Shown here: positions 49,056-57,232 of the stretch, piece after piece
How positions within the stretch are numbered: the stretch's first letter is position 1
How the letters are laid out: each line of letters starts with the position of its first letter
NCBI GenBank assembly: GCA_965248835.1
Contig: CBDFLJ010000001.1
Location: forward strand, 1,088,001 to 1,152,000
Direction: 5' to 3'
Length of the DNA stretch: 64,000 nt
Origin: Alphaproteobacteria bacterium
Lineage (GTDB): Bacteria; Pseudomonadota; Alphaproteobacteria; MPNO01
Program-made: the position numbers and the translations under genes
Notes under the pieces: generated by a model
Told to the model about the DNA's origin: nothing
Seen by the model: only the letters and a program-made list of their open reading frames with translations
Databases searched by the model: none

Positions 49056-49643
49056 TCACAGGATGATCGAGGGGTTGCGGATGTTCTGGTCGCGGTCGAT
49101 CAGGTTGACCTGCTTGACCAGCACCTCCCAGCCGGCGCCCCGGCGGCGCAGCCGATGGCCGGCCCAGCCCGACCACAGGCGCGTCTCGCCCGCCCGGAAC
49201 TCGCTGATGAAAACGTTCGAACGCATCATGACGATCGCCGGATCATCGGTCTCGTAGGCCTCGATATTGGAGACCAGCCGCACCGTGCGCGAGGCTGGTG
49301 CCTGGGACCAGGCGATCCCGGTGCCGAGGCGGTAGATCCGATCCTCCAGCCGCCTGCGGTCGTCGAATGCGATGGCGACCTCGCGCCTGGGATCGCCGCC
49401 CGACACGGTGCCCGGCACCCAATAGGCGCATTCGCCGGCATAGAGCGCGAGCCAGTCATCGAGGCGGTTCTCGTCGAGCATCCGCGCCTCGCGCTCGAGC
49501 ACGCGGCGCAGCGTGTCGCGCACGCCGGGGTCGGTGATCTCCCGATCCTCGCGCCGCCAGTTGGCGAAGGCCTCGATCAGCATGTCGTAATAGTCGTTGC
49601 TGACGTAATAGGACGACCGCGACGGATCGGGGCTCTCGGGCAT
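49056..49643 (-). CDS. Aromatic ring-hydroxylating dioxygenase beta subunit (TdnA2/AtdA4-like)
   Basis: REARMLDE..LDDWL.LY...C.YWVP, DDRRRLEDRI.RL, Q.P.SRT.R.VSN, KQVNLID. Confidence 0.92.
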   Translation of the reverse strand: MPESPDPSRSSYYVSNDYYDMLIEAFANWRREDREITDPGVRDTLRRVLEREARMLDENRLDDWLALYAGECAYWVPGTVSGGDPRREVAIAFDDRRRLEDRIYRLGTGIAWSQAPASRTVRLVSNIEAYETDDPAIVMMRSNVFISEFRAGETRLWSGWAGHRLRRRGAGWEVLVKQVNLIDRDQNIRNPSIIL

Positions 49644-49651
49644 GGTCCGGC

Positions 49652-51013
49652 TCACGGCGCCCGCTTGACGGCGATGCGCGGGTCGGCGGTCATCAAGCGC
49701 TTCCAGACCTTGGTGTGCTCGCGCATGAAGACCTCGTCGGTCGAGGGGCCGGTGATCACCCCGCGCGCATCGACCTCGATGCGGCCGGGCAGGCCGAGTC
49801 CGCGGTGCATGTAGACCCATTCGTCCTCCTCGGCGGCGAGCCCGACCTGGATCTGCTCGAAGTTCGCCAGGTCGTCGACCTCGCCGAAATTCGGGAAGGA
49901 TTCCTGGGTGCGCATCCTGAGCGCGTTGATGTCATCGACGGTGCCCTCCAGCACGCCGTCCTCGTCGATGACCGCGGTGCCGTACCAGGTCGTGTCGGTC
50001 TCGTCGACCGAGACCGGATGGGAGACCTGGATGTGGTTGCCGAGGATGTGGAGGTTGGGAAAGACGTTGATGTTGACCGGCTCGGAGGAGGCCAGATCGA
50101 GCGCGTAGTCGGCCTTCTCGCCCAGCCTCTGGCGCAGCGAGGCCTCGAAATGCTCCATGCCCGGGTGGGGTCCCTCGATCTCCCACAGCGCGCCCGGCCG
50201 ATCCTCGACATTGGGCCGCTTGTCCTTGTAGTGGTGGCCGTTGGCGTAGCACTGGACATACATCGCCGCATCGTCCGGACTGCCGCGGTAGAACGCCATG
50301 CCCTTGTCGCCGTCCTCGACCATGCGGTTCTCCATCGCCAGCAGCGACTGGTGGGAGAACAGCACGTGGTAGCCGTCGGCCGAGTTGTCGTAGAGCAGCT
50401 TCCAGTTGCCCTTGAACTTCAGCCGGTTGGCCTCGCACAGCGCGATCCTGCCGCCGGGATGGCGGTCGAGCCATTCGTCGATCGGCCGCGCCACCGGGCC
50501 GAGATACGCGGTCAGCGGCGGCGCATCGAGGTTGAGCGTGCCGAAGATGAACCCGCGATAGGACTCGACCCGCGGCACCTGGGCGAGGTTGAACTTGTCC
50601 TCGCTGAAATCGGTCGCGTAGCCCTCCGCCCACGGCACGCCCTGGATCTTGCCGGAATTGAAAAAGCTCCAGCCGTGATAGCCGCACATGAACGACTTCG
50701 CCTTGCCCCGGTCCTGGCGGCAGACGGTCGAGCCGCGATGGGTGCAGCGGTTGTAGAGCGCGCGGATCACCCCCCGGGAATCGCGGACCAGGATGATCGG
50801 CCGCAGACCGAGTCGGGTCCGCACGAAGTCGTCGTTCTCCGGGATCTGGCTCTCGTGGCCCAGAAAGACCCAGACCGCGCCGAAGATCCTGGTCATTTCC
50901 TCGCGGAAGATCGCCGGGTCGGTGTAAAGCAGCCGGTGGACCCGGTCCTCGTGGACCAGCGCCTCGTAGTCGTAGCAAGGTGCCCCGTTGGGCAAGCCTT
51001 CGGTCCTGTTCAT
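49652..51013 (-). CDS. Aromatic ring-hydroxylating dioxygenase alpha subunit (TdnA1/AtdA3-like)
   Basis: DRVHR.LYTDP.IF.EE, NRCTHRG...CGYHGW, NWKL..DN..DGYHV.FSH, DD..NFE.IQ.GL. Confidence 0.93.
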   Translation of the reverse strand: MNRTEGLPNGAPCYDYEALVHEDRVHRLLYTDPAIFREEMTRIFGAVWVFLGHESQIPENDDFVRTRLGLRPIILVRDSRGVIRALYNRCTHRGSTVCRQDRGKAKSFMCGYHGWSFFNSGKIQGVPWAEGYATDFSEDKFNLAQVPRVESYRGFIFGTLNLDAPPLTAYLGPVARPIDEWLDRHPGGRIALCEANRLKFKGNWKLLYDNSADGYHVLFSHQSLLAMENRMVEDGDKGMAFYRGSPDDAAMYVQCYANGHHYKDKRPNVEDRPGALWEIEGPHPGMEHFEASLRQRLGEKADYALDLASSEPVNINVFPNLHILGNHIQVSHPVSVDETDTTWYGTAVIDEDGVLEGTVDDINALRMRTQESFPNFGEVDDLANFEQIQVGLAAEEDEWVYMHRGLGLPGRIEVDARGVITGPSTDEVFMREHTKVWKRLMTADPRIAVKRAP

Positions 51014-51046
51014 GACCTTCTGCTCCTCGGTTGGGCCGCGCGGTGG

Positions 51047-52537
51047 TCAGAAGAAATCAAAATACTCGTTCTGCTCCCATTGGGTGACGCCGTTGATGCG
51101 CGCATCGCCCTCATTCTCGCAGGCCTGCCCGAAGCGGTCGATCTCGGCGCGCTTCAGGGCGATGAAATAGTCCACGAAACGGGCGCCGAACGCATCGCGA
51201 AAAACGCATGCGCCCTCCAGCAGCCCGATCGCCGCATCGAGCGAGTCCGGCAGCTTCGGCCGGTCGGCGCTATAGGGCTCATCATCGGCCGGCGGCGGGG
51301 CTAGGCCGCGCTCGATCCCGTCGAGCCCGGCCGCGATCTGCGAGGCGATGAACAGATAGGGGCTTGCCGCCGGCTCGGCCGCCCGGTTCTCCAGCCTCGT
51401 TGCCGGATCGCCCGGCCCGCCCAGGACGCGCACCATCGTTCCGCGGTTATCGAACCCCCAGCCAGCCCGGTCCGGCGCCAGCGAGTTCGGCCTGAACCGG
51501 CTGTAGCCGTTGACCGTGGGGGTGGCGAAGGAAGTGCCCGGTCCGGCATGGGCAATCAGCCCGGCGAGGAAGGACCGGCCCGACGGGCTGAGGAGCTCGG
51601 CGCCGTCATCGGGCGTGAACAGGTTGCGCCCGCTCTGCCGATCGGCGAGCGATTGGTGCAGGTGCCAGCCGCTGGCGAAGAACCCTTCGAAGGCCGGCCG
51701 GCACATGAAGCTCGCGAAATGGCCGAGCCGGCGGCACACCTGGCGGGTGGCGGTGCGGAAGAGCACGTAGTCATCGGCCGCGCGCATCGCCTCGTCGGCG
51801 GCAAAGGTGCATTCGACCTGGCCGGGGCCGAACTCGTTTTCGATCGAACGCAATCTCAGGCCGAGCGCCCGGTAGGTCCGGGCGAGCTCGCTCATGACCG
51901 GCTGCATGAGATCGAGATTGGTCTCGCAGTGATAGGCAAAGCCCGGCTCGGCCGGGGCCGTCGCGATCGGCCGGCCCGGCCGTCCCTGATGGGAGGTCTC
52001 GGCCGGGCCGATCCGGTCATCGAGGATCCGCGCCAGGTACCATTCGACCTCGAGCCCGACGATCAGCCGCATGGCGCGCGCCTCGAGGCGGGCGATCTGG
52101 CGTTTCAGCAGATGCCGGGTGGAGAACGGGAACGGGCTTCCGTCGCGGAAATACTCGTCGCCCAGGACCCAGCCGATCCCCGGCGCCCAGGGCAGGATCC
52201 GGAAGGTCAGCGGATCGGGCACGTAGACCAGATTGGGCGAGCCGGTCATTTCCTCGAGCCCCATCCCGCCGCCGCGGGTAAACGAGGAGAACACCCGGCC
52301 GCCGGAAGCATCGAGCGTCGCGCTGGCGACGTTGATGTTGTAGCCGTTGCGCAGCGCCTCGCCGAAGGCCGGCGGGCTCAGCGCCTTGGCTCTGGCGACA
52401 CCGTGGGTGTCCGCCCAGGCAACGCGGATCAGATGCAGATCCTCGCGCTCGATCAGGCGCGGCAGTTCGGCCGCGCGCGCGGCCTGCTCCTCGGTCCACA
52501 GGCCGTGGCGTTCGATGAACCCCGGGGTTTGCGCCAT
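51047..52537 (-). CDS. Glutamine synthetase-like gamma-glutamylating enzyme (TdnQ/AtdA1-like)
   Basis: GLEVEW, ENEFGPGQVE, SGWHLHQSL, DNRG.MVRV, RLENR; FIERHGLWT N-terminus; adjacent to dioxygenase alpha/beta. Confidence 0.9.
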   Translation of the reverse strand: MAQTPGFIERHGLWTEEQAARAAELPRLIEREDLHLIRVAWADTHGVARAKALSPPAFGEALRNGYNINVASATLDASGGRVFSSFTRGGGMGLEEMTGSPNLVYVPDPLTFRILPWAPGIGWVLGDEYFRDGSPFPFSTRHLLKRQIARLEARAMRLIVGLEVEWYLARILDDRIGPAETSHQGRPGRPIATAPAEPGFAYHCETNLDLMQPVMSELARTYRALGLRLRSIENEFGPGQVECTFAADEAMRAADDYVLFRTATRQVCRRLGHFASFMCRPAFEGFFASGWHLHQSLADRQSGRNLFTPDDGAELLSPSGRSFLAGLIAHAGPGTSFATPTVNGYSRFRPNSLAPDRAGWGFDNRGTMVRVLGGPGDPATRLENRAAEPAASPYLFIASQIAAGLDGIERGLAPPPADDEPYSADRPKLPDSLDAAIGLLEGACVFRDAFGARFVDYFIALKRAEIDRFGQACENEGDARINGVTQWEQNEYFDFF

Positions 52538-52541
52538 CGCC

Positions 52542-53366
52542 TCAGATGAAGCTCGAGCCGCCGTCGACCACGAGGTTCTGGCCGGAAACGTAGGAGGCTT
52601 CCTCCGAGCACAGGAACAGCATCGCCTTGGCGAGGTCGTGAATCGTGCCCTGGCGCTGCACCGCCTGGGCCTCGGTCATGGTCTTGAACATATGCCGCGG
52701 CACCGAGGGGCGGTCGATCTCGGTCTGCATCACGCCGGGCCAGAAGGTGTTGACGGTGATGTTCCACGCGCCGAGCTCGCGCGCCATCGACCGCGTCATG
52801 CCGACCATCGCCGATTTCGAGGTGATGTAGTGGAGGTAGTTGGGCCGGCCCTTCACATGGGTGCCCGAGGAGATGTTGATGATCCGCCCCCAGCGCGCAT
52901 CCATCATCGCCGGCACGACGGCGCGCGCGCACAGCATCGAGCCGGTGATGTTGACGTGCATGGCGGCCTTCCATTCCTCGACAGGGAGCTCCCAGAACGG
53001 CGCCATGGTGATCTTCGAGAACACCGCGGCGTTGTTGATCAGCACGTCGATCCGACCGAACCCCTCCAACGTCCCTGCCGCCAGCGCCTCGGCGGATTGC
53101 TCGTCGCCGACATCGGTCGGGATCGCCAGCGCCCGGCCCTGCTTGGCCCGGACCTCCTCGGCAACCCGCTCGCCGTCATCGCCGTTGATCTCGGCGATCA
53201 CCGGGATCGCGCCCTGGGCGGCGAAATAATGAGCATAGCCGCGGCCGATGCCCTGGCCGCCGCCGGTGATGATCACCACCCGGTCCTTGAGGCTGTCGTA
53301 ATGGGCGGTCTTGTCGACATCGATCCGCGCGTAGTCGATATTGCCGAAATCGAAATCCTCGTCCAT
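52542..53366 (-). CDS. Short-chain dehydrogenase/reductase with short acidic N-terminal extension
   Basis: TGGGQGIG, INNAA, YITSK; GGAGAGG RBS. Confidence 0.92.
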   Translation of the reverse strand: MDEDFDFGNIDYARIDVDKTAHYDSLKDRVVIITGGGQGIGRGYAHYFAAQGAIPVIAEINGDDGERVAEEVRAKQGRALAIPTDVGDEQSAEALAAGTLEGFGRIDVLINNAAVFSKITMAPFWELPVEEWKAAMHVNITGSMLCARAVVPAMMDARWGRIINISSGTHVKGRPNYLHYITSKSAMVGMTRSMARELGAWNITVNTFWPGVMQTEIDRPSVPRHMFKTMTEAQAVQRQGTIHDLAKAMLFLCSEEASYVSGQNLVVDGGSSFI

Positions 53367-53379
53367 CGCCCTCTCCGGC

Positions 53380-54003
53380 TCAGCTTTGCTGCGGCTTGGC
53401 GCCGGCATGCTCCATCAGCTTGACCAGCACCTCGTAGGGCTGGGCGCCGACCACGCCGTAGCCGGCAGCGGCATAGGTCGGCACCCCGGTCACGCCCATG
53501 TCGCGGGACCGCGACCAGTCCTCGTCGACGGCGTCCTTGAAGGTCCGGTCCGCCAACACCGCGCGCGCGGCCTCGCCCGATAGCCCGGCCTCCTCGACGA
53601 GGGCGATCAGCGTGTCGGGATCGCCGATATTGCGGCCGTCGACGAAATAGGCGCGATAGAGCGCCTCGTGCAGCGCAGCGCCGCCGTCCTGGGTGTCGGC
53701 CCACTTGCCGACCTCCTGGGCGAGCCGGCTGTTGTAGGTGTGGGTGCGGCGGTTGTATTCCAGACCCTCGGCATCCATCAGGCCTTTCATGCGGTTGTAG
53801 GACGCATCGAGGTCGACGTTGCGGCCGGCGAACAGCGACTCCAGGGTCATGCCCTCGGCCGGGGTTTCGGGGTGCAGCGGGAAGTGCACCATCCTGACAT
53901 CGACGTCATAGGCCTGGCTGAGCTTTTCAATACGCACGGTACTGAGATAGCACCAGGGTCAGACGTAGTCGGTGAACACTTCCAGCGTGATCGGCTCGGC
54001 CAT
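53380..54003 (-). CDS. DsbA/FrnE-family oxidoreductase, predicted selenoprotein (Sec15, UPWC motif)
   Basis: AAGGAGG RBS, ATG at 54003, MAEPITLEVFTDYV-TGA-PWCYLS, then in frame into the 185-aa ORF (FPLHPE, NSRLAQE, YFVDGRNIG, GVTGVPT, GAQPY). Confidence 0.88.
53913..53958 (-). promoter_or_regulatory. Bacterial SECIS-like stem-loop directly 3' of the in-frame TGA
   Basis: C-CCTGG-T-GCT-ATC-TCAGTAC-[CGTGC]-GTATTGA-AA-AGC-TCAG-CCAGG; nested stems with a 5-nt apical loop containing GU, starting 21 nt after UGA. Folded by eye. Confidence 0.75.
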
Positions 54004-54133
54004 CGGCGGCCTCCTTGCGGCTGGTTGGGTCCGCGCAGTCTAGAGCAGTTTGCCGGCGCGCGAAAACGGCGCTTCATACGGGGTGATCGAGGCGCGTTCG
54101 TCTCGCGGGCGGCGCCGGCGCGCGGCAGGTTGC

Positions 54134-54161
54134 TTGACCGTGGTCCTGCGTCGCCTACGAT
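54134..54161 (+). promoter_or_regulatory. Candidate sigma70 promoter giving a leaderless transcript of the Rieske oxygenase
   Basis: TTGACC-16 nt-TACGAT, then 7 nt to ATG 54169; no SD sequence. Confidence 0.45.
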
Positions 54162-54168
54162 GGCCGGC

Positions 54169-55500
54169 ATGATCCCGGCCGATGAGAACGAGCGCCTGAC
54201 CCGGACCGGCCACGGCACGCCGATGGGCGCGGTGATGCGGCACTACTGGCAGCCGCTGGCGCTCACCGAAGAGTTGCCGGCCGCACGCCCGCTCACGGAG
54301 GCCCGCGTGCTGGGCGAGGATATCGTGGTCTTCCGCAACGAGGCCGGAAGCTATGGCGCGCTGGCCCGGCAGTGCGCCCACCGCGCCGGCGATCTCGCCT
54401 ACGGCCGGCTCGAGGACGGCGGGCTGCGCTGCCCCTATCACGGCTGGCTCTACGACATCGCCGGGCGCTGCCTGGAGCAGCCGGCCGAGCCGGCCGGCTC
54501 GCGCTATCACGACAGGATCCACCATACCGCCTATCCGTGCATCGAGCGCAACGGCATCGTCTACGGCTACATGGGCCCGGGCGCGCCGCCCGCCCTGCCC
54601 GGCTTCGATTGGCACGACGCGCCGGCGCCGCACATCTTCGTCTTCAAGGGGCTGCAGCGGGCGAACTGGCTGCAGGCGGTCGAGGGCGAGATCGACCCCT
54701 CGCACCTGTCCTATCTCCACCGCTACCTGCGCGAGGAGATCGATGCCGACGCCTCCTACGGGTTCAAGCAGTTCCGCGAGACCGCGGGCGATACCGAGGT
54801 TTCCGTCACCCGGATCCTGCGCGAGGTGCCCAACCCGCGGCTGGAGATCGAGCGCACCGATTTCGGCGTCCGCGTCTATGCGCTGCGCGATGCGGGGGGC
54901 TTCACCTACACGCGGGTGACCAACTTCTTGTTCCCGAACACTGCCGTGGTCGCGATCGGCGACTGGTCGCTGGTCCAGACCCACGTGCCGATCGACGACG
55001 AACACAACTGGCGCTACGACATCTTCTACGCCTTCGACGATTCGCTGGACCGCGACGGGCTGCGGCGCGAGCGGTTGAAGACCTATTGCGTCCCCGGATA
55101 CCGGCCAACGCGCAACCTGGAGAACCGCTACGGCTTCGATCCGGACGAGCAGCGCGCCGGCACCTATGCCGGGGTGGGCTTCGACTTCAACGTCCACGAC
55201 ACGATGATCCTGGAGGGCCAGGGTGCGGTCCAGGACCGCACGCGCGAGAACCTCGCCTACACCGACATGGCGATCATCGCGGCCCGCAAGATGCTGGCCG
55301 AAGCGATGGAGGACGGCGCGGTGCTGCCGATGACCGGCCCGGACGGCGCGGCGCGGCGGTTCGACGACCTGGTGAGCATCGATGCGGTGACCGGCTCCGA
55401 GGACTGGCGCACCGGCTGGGTCGACAAGCAGATCGCCCGCCGCGCCGCCTCCCCCTGGGCCGGGACGATCGCCGCCCCGCGGCTGGCGGCGCTGGGCTGA
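54169..55500 (+). CDS. Rieske oxygenase, phthalate 4,5-dioxygenase/LigXa-like group
   Basis: NERLTRTG.GTPMG.VMR.YWQP, CAHR...CPYHGW, NWLQAVEGEIDPSHLSYLH, HD....EGQG...DRTRENL...D.AI. Confidence 0.92.
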   Translation: MIPADENERLTRTGHGTPMGAVMRHYWQPLALTEELPAARPLTEARVLGEDIVVFRNEAGSYGALARQCAHRAGDLAYGRLEDGGLRCPYHGWLYDIAGRCLEQPAEPAGSRYHDRIHHTAYPCIERNGIVYGYMGPGAPPALPGFDWHDAPAPHIFVFKGLQRANWLQAVEGEIDPSHLSYLHRYLREEIDADASYGFKQFRETAGDTEVSVTRILREVPNPRLEIERTDFGVRVYALRDAGGFTYTRVTNFLFPNTAVVAIGDWSLVQTHVPIDDEHNWRYDIFYAFDDSLDRDGLRRERLKTYCVPGYRPTRNLENRYGFDPDEQRAGTYAGVGFDFNVHDTMILEGQGAVQDRTRENLAYTDMAIIAARKMLAEAMEDGAVLPMTGPDGAARRFDDLVSIDAVTGSEDWRTGWVDKQIARRAASPWAGTIAAPRLAALG

Positions 55501-55525
55501 GCCGCCCGGCCGGCAGGCAGGCCGA

Positions 55526-57232
55526 TCAGGCCGGGTCCATGCCGTCGACCGGGCCGGGGTCGGAGATGCCGGGGCCGAAGACCTCGCGGCCGCCGACGAA
55601 GGTGTGCTCGACGCCGATCGCGCCCAGCGCATCCTCGGCGCAGGTCAGCGGGTCGGCGTCGAGCACCACCATGTCGGCCATCTTGCCGGCTTCGAGCGTG
55701 CCCTTGCGGTCCTCTTCCCAGGTCACCAGGGCGCCGGCCTGGCAGACCAGACGCAGCGCCTCCTCGCGGGTCAGCCGGCTGTCGCCGAGGCGGCGGCCGG
55801 AATCGGCGTCGTAGCGGGCAAGCGCCTCCCACATCGTCCACAGCATCGAGTACGGCACGTTGTCCGAGGACAGCGCCACCGGAACGCCTTCATCCAGCAG
55901 GGCGCGGATCGGCATCGCGCGGGCGCCGATCTCGTGCAGGTTGAAGCGGTCCGAGGCCATGTACATGAAGTTCGGCGTCACGGTGGCGATCACCCCGAGC
56001 GCCTTCATGCGCCGGATCTGGTCGGCGCTCGCCTCGATGACGTGGATCATCACCCATCGCCGGTCGCGGATCGAGACCTGCGCATCGATCGCCTCGTAGG
56101 CCTTGAGCACCCGCTCGAGGTCATAGCAGATCAGGCAGCTCAGCCGGATGCCCAGCCGGGCCGCGTGGACGCCGATCTCGACGAAGCGGTCGTGCGCAAG
56201 ACAATGATAGAAATGCCCGGCCCAGGCCTCGTAGGGGTAGTCGGCGCCGATGATGGCGGCGGCCTCGGCATTGGCGACGTCCACGCACGCGCCCTCGAAG
56301 CGCAGCATGTCATCGCCGCTGCCGCGCCCGGCAAGGCGCGTGGCCCATTCGTCGAGGATCCCGGCGAGCCTGCGGTCCTCGACCGAGGCGCCGGGCACGC
56401 TGAGCGGCAGGTGGGCGCGGACCACCAGATCGCCGTCCTCGTGGATCCGGCGGTAGGCCTCCAGGATCGCCGGTGTCAGCCCGTGTCCCTCGTAGATGCT
56501 GGTCGTGCCGGCCGCCGCGTAGGCCGCCGCTCCCAGCCGGCAGCCGGCAATGCGGTCCTCGAAGGTGATGCGGGGCGCCTTGCGCATCAGCGTGTACTCG
56601 ATCACCGGGGCATAGGAGTGGTCGAGGAAGACGCCGGTCGGATCGCCCCGCTCGTCCTTGAGGATCTCGACGTTGTAGGGCGCCGCGGTGTCGCGGCCGA
56701 TGCCGCAGGCAAGCAGCGCCGCGCTGTTGGCGACGCAGACGAACGGGCGGTGGACCCACCATCCCCAGGGCACACGGATATAGACCGGGTTGTCCGGTGA
56801 GACAGCGTCGAGGTCGTGGCGGGTGGGAAACCGGCCTTCGGCGAGCTGATCGGGTCGGCTGATATAGCTGAGCTTGGGCGTGCCCATGGGCATGAAGACC
56901 ACCCATTCGCCCTTGGGCGTGCGCGCGACCGCGCTGCGGACCGCCTCGGTGATCGAAGCCACCGAATGCCGTCCGGCCAGCGAATAGCCGCCGCGCGCCT
57001 TCAGCCCTTCGCGGTCCATATGGGCGTGGGTGTCGATGAAGCCGGGACAGACGACGCGCCCGGCCAGATCGATCACCCGGCTGGCGCGGCCGCGCCCGGC
57101 CAGGACCGCATCATCGGAGCCCACCGCGGAAATGCGTCCGGCCCGCGCCGCGACGGCCTCGGCGATCCGCGATCGACCGTCCAGGGTGATCACCGTCCCG
57201 CCGTGCAGAATCAGATCGTGTTCGGGAAACAT
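55526..57232 (-). CDS. Amidohydrolase 3 (YtcJ-like) family protein
   Basis: AEAVA...GRI.AVG, PGFIDTHAH, LDAVSPDNPV, SSD, KGTLEAGKMADMVVLD.DP. Confidence 0.9.
   Translation of the reverse strand: MFPEHDLILHGGTVITLDGRSRIAEAVAARAGRISAVGSDDAVLAGRGRASRVIDLAGRVVCPGFIDTHAHMDREGLKARGGYSLAGRHSVASITEAVRSAVARTPKGEWVVFMPMGTPKLSYISRPDQLAEGRFPTRHDLDAVSPDNPVYIRVPWGWWVHRPFVCVANSAALLACGIGRDTAAPYNVEILKDERGDPTGVFLDHSYAPVIEYTLMRKAPRITFEDRIAGCRLGAAAYAAAGTTSIYEGHGLTPAILEAYRRIHEDGDLVVRAHLPLSVPGASVEDRRLAGILDEWATRLAGRGSGDDMLRFEGACVDVANAEAAAIIGADYPYEAWAGHFYHCLAHDRFVEIGVHAARLGIRLSCLICYDLERVLKAYEAIDAQVSIRDRRWVMIHVIEASADQIRRMKALGVIATVTPNFMYMASDRFNLHEIGARAMPIRALLDEGVPVALSSDNVPYSMLWTMWEALARYDADSGRRLGDSRLTREEALRLVCQAGALVTWEEDRKGTLEAGKMADMVVLDADPLTCAEDALGAIGVEHTFVGGREVFGPGISDPGPVDGMDPA

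Follow-up and report, generated by a model that had tools for sequence, protein, structure and literature searches.

The window analysed here, a 64,000-nucleotide stretch of an alphaproteobacterial contig, carries on its minus strand a reading frame of the DsbA/FrnE type that is interrupted by a TGA at its fifteenth codon. The question raised by this locus is whether that UGA ends translation, or is an error or a nonsense mutation, or is decoded as an amino acid, and if so as which. On the evidence presented below, the gene very probably encodes a cytoplasmic selenoprotein, a thiol-disulfide oxidoreductase placed in the FrnE branch of DsbA-family proteins, with selenocysteine (Sec) in a U15-P-W-C18 motif and its insertion directed by a SECIS hairpin.

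Reading frame and protein family

The mechanical listing of open reading frames starts the gene at GTG 53937, which yields a product of 185 aa. A sequence-only reading of the window had pointed instead to an upstream ATG at 54003 with a strong AAGGAGG ribosome-binding site, and this site is located at 54016-54010. From the ATG the frame comprises 14 sense codons (MAEPITLEVFTDYV), followed by TGA (53961-53959) and CCC TGG TGC, i.e. P-W-C. Downstream of the putative Sec-UGA it is open until a second TGA (53382-53380), so that direct reading agrees with the frame proposed earlier. Translated with TGA as U, the minus-strand interval 54003..53380 holds a DsbA/FrnE-like selenoprotein CDS of 207 aa plus stop, with Sec at codon 15. 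The features of the gene and of its flanks are:

54010..54016, minus strand: Shine-Dalgarno-like AAGGAGG, by direct reading; spacer of 6 nt to ATG 54003-54001
53380..54003, minus strand: full predicted selenoprotein CDS, translated with TGA=U; PF01323 on residues 6-196, FrnE 5cnw on residues 3-200
53959..53961, minus strand: putative Sec-UGA, codon 15, at the first Cys of the C-P-W-C redox motif, from reading, FrnE alignment and orthologs
53935..53937, minus strand: GTG taken as start by ORF and gene callers (ORF 53380..53937); codon of Val-22 inside the SECIS apical loop
53380..53382, minus strand: true stop TGA, read as stop, by direct reading; orthologs end at codons 206-213
53668..55500, plus strand: ORF of a Rieske/LigXa-like oxygenase, upstream and divergent; Rieske domain from residue 194
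53366..52542, minus strand: SDR gene, 13 nt downstream

The protein matches the DSBA family (PF01323) over residues 6-196 with an E-value of 1.1e-35 and 123.6 bits (cut-off 25.6), hence the domain begins upstream of the TGA. The best match among solved structures is FrnE 5cnw (E 4.2e-26), in which residues 3-200 align to residues 10-218 of the 260 of FrnE. FrnE 5cp1 (E 4e-26) and SCO1869 (3gl5) are also close, and FrnE and SCO1869 as closest solved relatives are consistent with a COG2761 (FrnE-type) assignment. In the alignment the CPWC of FrnE falls on U15-P-W-C18, which bears out the earlier claim that the TGA occupies the site of the first Cys in the family motif.

The codons in front of the TGA behave as coding sequence. 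Over the 13 codons before it, the variability by codon position is 0.183/0.097/0.284, with the third position highest and the second lowest. This coding-type pattern, together with the alignment to FrnE residues from position 10, indicates that the upstream codons are translated. A GGAG-type purine-rich stretch is present at the equivalent upstream site in nearly all of the 30 aligned ortholog loci.

If the UGA at 53961-53959 were a real stop, the protein would be the 185-aa form from GTG 53937 and the 14 upstream codons a leader ORF or untranslated. The 185-aa form is what the mechanical ORF listing and the public gene calls give: the public record of this very gene (P0002) is a 185-aa protein starting with MRIEKL, and public protein sets list many relatives at 183-190 aa. 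Such a product, however, would be devoid of the entire redox motif and of the first DSBA strand, whereas the Pfam and FrnE alignments start at residues 6 and 3, respectively. Moreover, conservation of the 14 upstream codons is at the protein level and their variability is of the coding type, ATG and ribosome-binding site are kept as well, the supposed GTG start falls in the SECIS loop, and the Cys-form relatives in the database are full length. Termination at codon 15 is therefore extremely unlikely, and the reading as a 207-aa selenoprotein is preferred.

The recorded 185-aa product confirms the earlier statement that standard pipelines truncate this gene. An NCBIfam profile search of the protein returned a single match, in which a (seleno)lipoprotein family distinct from this one scored 37 bits, below its cut-off of 190, and no NCBIfam model attains its cut-off. 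Specific to the present case is that databases carry the gene's product as a fragment of 185 aa and that NCBIfam lacks a model covering the family. The main worth of the finding is an annotation correction, the recorded fragment being without its active site. Because the recorded products are short, such proteins will be undercounted when redox enzymes or selenium use are surveyed in Alphaproteobacteria of soil and aquatic habitats.

The hairpin 3' of the UGA

The minimum free energy (MFE) fold of 53961-53900 contains three stems and a CGUGC loop at -18.1 kcal/mol, the value for the core alone being -8.1 kcal/mol. Its elements are:

53922..53951, minus strand: conserved SECIS core, from fold and covariation over 80 distinct sequences
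53951-53949 with 53924-53922, minus strand: 3-bp stem of the SECIS, from fold and covariation
53945-53939 with 53933-53927, minus strand: 7-bp apical stem of the SECIS, from fold and covariation
53938-53934, minus strand: apical loop CGUGC of the SECIS, from fold and covariation
53913..53957, minus strand: lower CCUGG/CCAGG stem around the core (53957-53953 with 53917-53913), from the MFE fold; register not conserved

All three stems and the loop that had been drawn by eye are accordingly present in the MFE fold, with the qualification that the CCUGG/CCAGG stem is not conserved in the register drawn. As a single sequence, the folded stretch is within chance expectation (z-score -1.68; 15 of 200 shuffles fold equally well or better). 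A generic hairpin rule is passed by 864 of 3000 random TGA sites of the genome (29%). Since the lone fold is within chance and generic SECIS rules are unspecific in this GC-rich genome, the significance of the hairpin comes from comparison across genomes, and reliance is placed on covariation and on the Cys-form control given below.

According to the available part of a 2026 review, the bSECIS model has an apical loop of 3-9 nt with G in its first two positions, an upper stem of 4-16 bp, a spacing of 16-37 nt and an MFE of at most -7.5 kcal/mol (PMC13188914). The element of the window, with a loop of 5 nt, a stem of 7 bp, a spacing of 20 nt and an MFE of -18.1, lies inside all four published ranges, and the G that precedes U at loop positions 2-3 falls within the first two positions, as the model wants. 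A search of 53300-54150 against Rfam (E up to 10) gave three chance-level matches elsewhere in the interval and none on the hairpin.

The structure was tested as ten pairs (the 3-bp stem and the 7-bp apical stem) on two alignments. In the smaller one (30 sequences, 25 distinct), 96.8% of the cells are paired, compared with 25.2-42.0% when the 3' partners are slid; changes on both sides occur in five of the ten pairs, and none of 500 shuffles attains the covariation score. The larger one (109 sequences, 80 distinct) is nearly the same, with 97.3% of the cells paired, 25.8-43.4% with slid partners, both-side changes again in five of ten pairs and the covariation score again attained by none of 500 shuffles. 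Both-side changes in the larger alignment replace, for example, U-A by C-G in 18 rows, C-G by U-A in 28 rows and A-U by U-A or G-C in 6 rows, these rows being non-independent since the sequences are related and the locus sets overlap. Over the 80 distinct orthologs, pairing reaches 98.4% in the 7-bp apical stem and 94.6% in the 3-bp middle stem; the lower CCUGG/CCAGG stem is paired in 51.8% of the cells and is peculiar to the window's own fold. Loop positions G25 and G27 are invariant.

Codon choice in the hairpin is likewise restricted. For the 12 codons that follow the TGA, third positions show a variability of 0.199; two stretches further downstream have 0.352 and 0.358. The remark that the hairpin uses codons rare in this genome holds for AGT (1.8% of Ser), CGT (5.4% of Arg) and ATT (5.5% of Ile), as counted over 2552 long high-GC3 ORFs.

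Conservation of the TGA, Sec machinery and Cys forms

A six-frame search of 60 relatives of the order, belonging to five families, recovered an ortholog-grade match in 54 (E <= 2.4e-80), each with the in-frame TGA. Among the other six, five gave no match at all (completeness 77-99%) and one a paralog-grade match only. Paralog-grade matches (12, E 3.9e-24 to 8e-21), one of them in the source genome, are all without the stop, and the paralog of the source genome reads CPWC. The aligned loci have TGA at codon 15 in 30 of 30 cases, within the consensus M-x-E/D-P...F-T/S-D-Y-V-TGA-P-W-C-Y-L-S-T-V-R. In an even sample of 401 genomes of the class, 12 were matched at E <= 1e-30, every one with TGA; the sample includes genome G000, and the 12 contain G000 and one genome already counted among the relatives. 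Among the best 80 loci of 474 related stretches in a public genome collection, the codon is TGA in 79 and TGC in one (L105). The U-P-W-C motif is kept in all 109 TGA-bearing sequences (30 aligned and 79 public loci). As the locus sets overlap and the organisms are related, these counts describe breadth rather than independent events. By record title, the related stretches are mostly from alphaproteobacterial MAGs (Defluviicoccus, Stellaceae, Rhodospirillales), with a few from Beta- or Gammaproteobacteria.

This distribution bears on the explanation that the TGA is a private nonsense mutation, and the gene a pseudogene, or an assembly or sequencing error. Such an explanation has in its favour only that a stop codon occurs at all, in an assembly that is MAG-like and has an estimated contamination of 9.51%. 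Set against it are the equivalent TGA in 54 of 60 relatives, in 12 of 12 matches of the class sample and in 79 of the best 80 public loci, orthologs with TGA from many unrelated assemblies, and a frame that is open and conserved downstream of the TGA. The public runs consisted of contigs throughout; among the matches listed, those of X1 and X3 differ from the window by 0 letters over 53655-53959 and 53950-54150, and as both runs probably represent the source sample they constitute no independent confirmation. The sequence-only reading had itself named a private mutation with no TGA in homologs as the outcome that would speak against Sec, and the wide conservation of the codon contradicts it. 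Mutation or error has a practically negligible probability, and a functional, Sec-encoding UGA is retained as the reading. The RNA libraries X19 and X20 contributed only short contigs of relatives on the gene, one of which (X20 record 22) covers 53921-53999 and hence extends across the UGA; they are no proof of transcription.

The source genome possesses the complete machinery for Sec, for which the sequence-only reading had asked: selA (TIGR00474, 559 bits, cut-off 268), selB (TIGR00475, 444 bits, cut-off 242) and selD (TIGR00476, 307 bits, cut-off 125), all above their NCBIfam cut-offs, besides a tRNA-Sec (selC) with anticodon TCA. The gene, selA, selB, tRNA-Sec and selD are all situated on one contig of 2.29 Mb, with the selA-selB pair at:

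C1:1178748-1182172: selA and selB, overlapping by 4 nt, approximately 27 kb past the end of the window and 37 kb from the gene

The tRNA-Sec lies 2.2 kb beyond selA-selB, past an acetolactate-synthase-like gene, and selD is fused to an N-terminal pyridine-nucleotide-disulfide oxidoreductase domain. Every genome searched in the relatives' set (61 of 61) yielded a selA, a result that agrees with the use of Sec without discriminating.

The immediate neighbourhood tells little about function, as the adjacent SDR gene adjoins in 18 of 109 ortholog loci only, all of them close kin (80-86% identity). Another 23 of the 109 loci have distant SDRs elsewhere in their flanks. The remaining neighbours differ between loci, and over the 109 loci no operon partner common to the family was found. 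Past the SDR gene the window continues with a glutamine-synthetase-like gene and a Rieske alpha/beta oxygenase pair. On the other side, the Rieske domain of the divergent Rieske/LigXa-like ORF begins only at residue 194, so the true start of that gene lies downstream of 54003.

Cys at position 15 occurs naturally in this family. L105, the only TGC locus among the best 80 public loci, encodes a protein 69% identical to that of the window and supplies, beside the FrnE alignment, the Cys/TGA pairing that had been looked for at position 15. Its next codons specify L-A-T-A-R-I, compared with L-S-T-V-R-I in the window, and the common CGC and ATC are used. The hairpin is lost in L105: its core folds at -3.5 kcal/mol in a different shape, compared with a mean of -8.06 (range -12.4 to -3.8) in the 109 TGA sequences. 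L105 offers a natural Sec/Cys partner for comparing both chemistries. Position 15 in 14 full-length database relatives is C in ten, W in two (P0032, P0064) and R in two (P0017, P0022); the ten C records include P0018, the product of L105. Cys forms are interspersed with Sec forms in a tree of 114 rows built by a quick search, which needs seven Sec/Cys changes; of its 111 inner branches 51 are unresolved, its root rests on a very long outgroup branch (5.62), and its well-supported branches force only one change. The pattern suggests that reversion from Sec to Cys may have occurred repeatedly.

The W and R records are also what favours a third explanation, namely read-through of the UGA with an amino acid other than Sec, by near-cognate insertion of Trp or Cys or under a reassigned code. 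W is, however, what a gene call under code 4 prints for TGA, and W15 in P0032 and P0064 probably is such a TGA; R15 is unexplained. Reassignment disagrees with the use of TGA as the gene's own stop 193 codons further on, from which it follows that the code is not reassigned. Read-through without Sec also leaves aside that the genome has complete Sec machinery and that the hairpin agrees with the SECIS model and is lost where the codon is TGC. It is very unlikely, and decoding of the UGA as Sec remains the favoured reading. The 207-aa UxxC selenoenzyme proposed at the outset is in this way supported by sequence, homologs, hairpin and machinery together.

Other candidates, proposed function and known systems

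A Sec-type formate dehydrogenase was sought in the genome: of 19 formate-dehydrogenase-like matches, none is above the family cut-off and none has an in-frame TGA, for which reason all TGA sites were screened genome-wide. A first motif screen that admitted S/T partners gave 142 candidates, mostly gene ends and terminators, and was replaced by a screen for TGA in coding-like flanks with a Cys-partnered motif, supplemented by a scan for the CGUG[C/A] loop; the screen is incomplete and its false negatives are uncontrolled. It produced at least 12 further candidates with a Pfam domain spanning the TGA. Two are of the AhpC/TSA type (Prx-like, UxxC), six CMD/AhpD-like (CxxU), one of these below the Pfam cut-off, two UGSC, one Rdx/SelW-like and one deiodinase-like. 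All 12 fall in selenoprotein families already published.

Of the 109,131 TGA sites of the genome, 68 are followed by a CGUG[C/A] loop that is closed by C-G and sits on a stem of 5 bp or more. These 68 include the DsbA-like gene and six other Pfam-supported candidates, i.e. 7 of 13. Measured against the threshold of six genes given for selenoprotein-rich organisms in the accessible text of PMC5029168, the candidate count makes this a selenoprotein-rich genome. We tentatively consider, at somewhat less than even confidence, that the genome and perhaps the whole order may keep the Sec machinery solely for selenoproteins of the thiol-oxidoreductase type (at least 13 candidates), with no Sec-containing formate dehydrogenase, that CGUG[C/A] may be a lineage-specific SelB signature, and that the DsbA-like clade may be almost obligately Sec, with occasional reversion to Cys and decay of the SECIS. 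If true, the loop could be used for a direct read-out of the selenoproteome. A selenoprotein-rich genome in which no Sec-formate dehydrogenase was found among the matches searched, and in which a common loop type recurs, is a more interesting lead than the DsbA-like gene itself.

To our knowledge, the DsbA-like selenoprotein family has never been characterised at the bench. Selenium insertion, catalytic chemistry, substrates and reductant are here inferred from sequence, and the function is that predicted by a similarity to FrnE at the level of approximately 30%. Translation would start at ATG 54003. At UGA 53961-53959 the downstream hairpin, with its CGUGC loop starting 20 nt past the UGA, the 7-bp apical stem and the 3-bp stem beneath, would recruit SelB with Sec-tRNA(Sec), whereby Sec would be inserted in place of termination. 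The second TGA (53382-53380), lacking a SECIS-like element, would then terminate translation. With the redox motif at residue 15, as read from the sequence, a signal peptide lacks room. Sec is a more reactive nucleophile than Cys. The enzyme is expected to cycle between the selenol/thiol form and a U15-C18 selenenylsulfide, thereby reducing or isomerising disulfides of partner proteins. C18 is the single Cys among the 207 residues, and the protein ends at residue 207, therefore a C-terminal CxxxxC of the FrnE type is absent. The lack of this tail implies that an external reductant would be needed for recycling, and the U15-C18 selenenylsulfide would accordingly be reduced by an external system.

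FrnE is described in the available text of PMC8945050 as a predicted cytoplasmic thiol oxidoreductase of the DsbA family with disulfide isomerase and insulin-reduction activity, reducible by thioredoxin reductase, with a C-terminal CxxxxC (residues 239-244) for which a role in regenerating the active site is proposed. The window protein resembles FrnE of Deinococcus radiodurans (DR_0659; 5cnw, 5cp1) in its CP(W/F)C active site at the equivalent place, in a motif that begins at approximately residue 15-22, and in the T-G-V-P (cis-Pro) loop, which aligns. In contrast to D. radiodurans FrnE, it has Sec for the first Cys and is without the CxxxxC tail, a tail that according to the same text is also absent from FrnE of S. 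roseofulvus and D. maricopensis (PMC8945050).

Compared with SECIS elements of the E. coli fdhF type, as far as these are treated in the accessible part of PMC13188914, the hairpin is alike in being a stem-loop directly 3' of the UGA and inside the coding region, with a small apical loop, G then U, a 20-nt spacing and a presumable dependence on SelB. No relationship in sequence to the E. coli elements could be detected, and the CGUGC loop is here closed by C-G.

The gene belongs to a selenoprotein family known since 2005, when a 'DsbA-like protein' of COG2761 with a UXXC motif was presented from nine Sargasso Sea sequences (Zhang, Fomenko & Gladyshev 2005, PMC1088965). Among sequenced genomes, four genes were listed in 2006 (Zhang et al., PMC1794560), a later survey counts 45 genes in 41 organisms (Peng et al. 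2016, PMC5029168), and the 2026 review names a 'DsbA-like protein form 1' (PF01323, UxxC; PMC13188914), each as given in the accessible portion of the source. The term 'hidden selenoprotein', chosen in the sequence-only reading, is consequently apt for the annotation, with its 185-aa record, and not for the family, as Sec-containing DsbA-like proteins are already published. The accessible passages of papers on DsbA-like selenoproteins in Alphaproteobacteria do not deal with the present clade, which figures or supplementary lists may include. Like DsbA-like protein form 1, the gene encodes a PF01323 domain whose UxxC motif has Sec as its first redox residue, its UGA is followed at once by a SECIS whose small apical loop contains G, and Cys homologs exist; nothing in the accessible descriptions sets it apart in kind. 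To this family the present locus and its orthologs add a well-supported and near-obligately Sec clade.

Catabolic-looking setting and position 15 of the DsbA-like protein

The surroundings of the DsbA-like gene (window 54003-53380, minus strand; candidate Sec-UGA at codon 15) look catabolic in their gene content across window 49056-57232:

49652-51013 and 49056-49820, minus: Rieske oxygenase alpha/beta pair
51047-52537, minus: glutamine-synthetase-like gene
52542-53366, minus: SDR gene
within 53668-55500, plus: Rieske/LigXa-like oxygenase gene, divergent from the DsbA-like gene
55526-57232, minus: amidohydrolase gene

Where the DsbA-like gene has Sec, the full-length database relatives P0017 and P0022 carry R and P0032 and P0064 carry W, and all four retain the SECIS-encoded peptide. 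The W of P0032 and P0064 may represent a TGA called under code 4. The source genome, G000, also possesses a Cys-form DsbA/FrnE paralog (C2:1205163-1205774, locus L036) with CPWC and no internal stop, 36% identical to the product of the DsbA-like gene.

The UGA-SECIS stretch and its apical loop

Summed contig depth peaks at window 53938-53966, the UGA-SECIS stretch, with 1087 in X1 (a public metagenome run, probably the source sample) and 1058 in X20 (a public RNA library, here represented by contigs of relatives); over most of the flanks, X1 reaches only about 20-40. Exact-match contigs break at this same near-invariant stretch, which is evidently common to many community members and may fragment assemblies at the DsbA-like gene.

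The apical loop of the DsbA-like gene (window 53934-53938) is of the CGUG[C/A] type. In a whole-genome scan of G000 for this loop with a closing stem of at least 5 bp, 16-37 nt 3' of TGA, it follows only 68 of 109,131 TGA sites, and it is present at 7 of the 13 selenoprotein candidates. The loop may constitute a lineage-specific SelB recognition signature.

selD and further candidate selenoproteins in G000

NCBIfam profiles locate selD in G000 (C1:494570-496525; L137:571-2526, minus strand), joined in one gene to an N-terminal pyridine-nucleotide-disulfide oxidoreductase domain. This fusion scores 307 bits with TIGR00476 and 314 bits with TIGR03169 (cut-off 310).

Formate dehydrogenase is the most widespread bacterial selenoprotein. 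None of the formate-dehydrogenase-like molybdopterin oxidoreductase matches in G000, among them C2:748875-751499, C1:819054-821126 and C2:1462350-1464338, contains an in-frame TGA or reaches the TIGR01553 cut-off, and formate dehydrogenase seems not to be a selenoprotein in this genome.

Genome TGA screens combined with Pfam detected 12 further candidate selenoprotein genes, all outside the window, with a Pfam domain spanning the in-frame TGA (coordinates denote its T):

C1: 455054(+), 758609(-), 746915(+), 1326363(+), 1772552(+)
C2: 2479877(+), 280977(+), 2106078(-), 2091287(-), 185657(-), 932162(+), 858062(-)

According to Pfam they comprise six CMD/AhpD-like candidates with CxxU (the one at C1:746915(+) scoring under Pfam's cut-off), two AhpC/TSA candidates with UxxC, two UGSC candidates, and one Rdx/SelW-like and one deiodinase-like candidate. 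A passage in PMC5029168 sets the threshold for a 'selenoprotein-rich' genome at six genes; with at least 13 candidates, the DsbA-like gene included, G000 is therefore 'selenoprotein-rich'.
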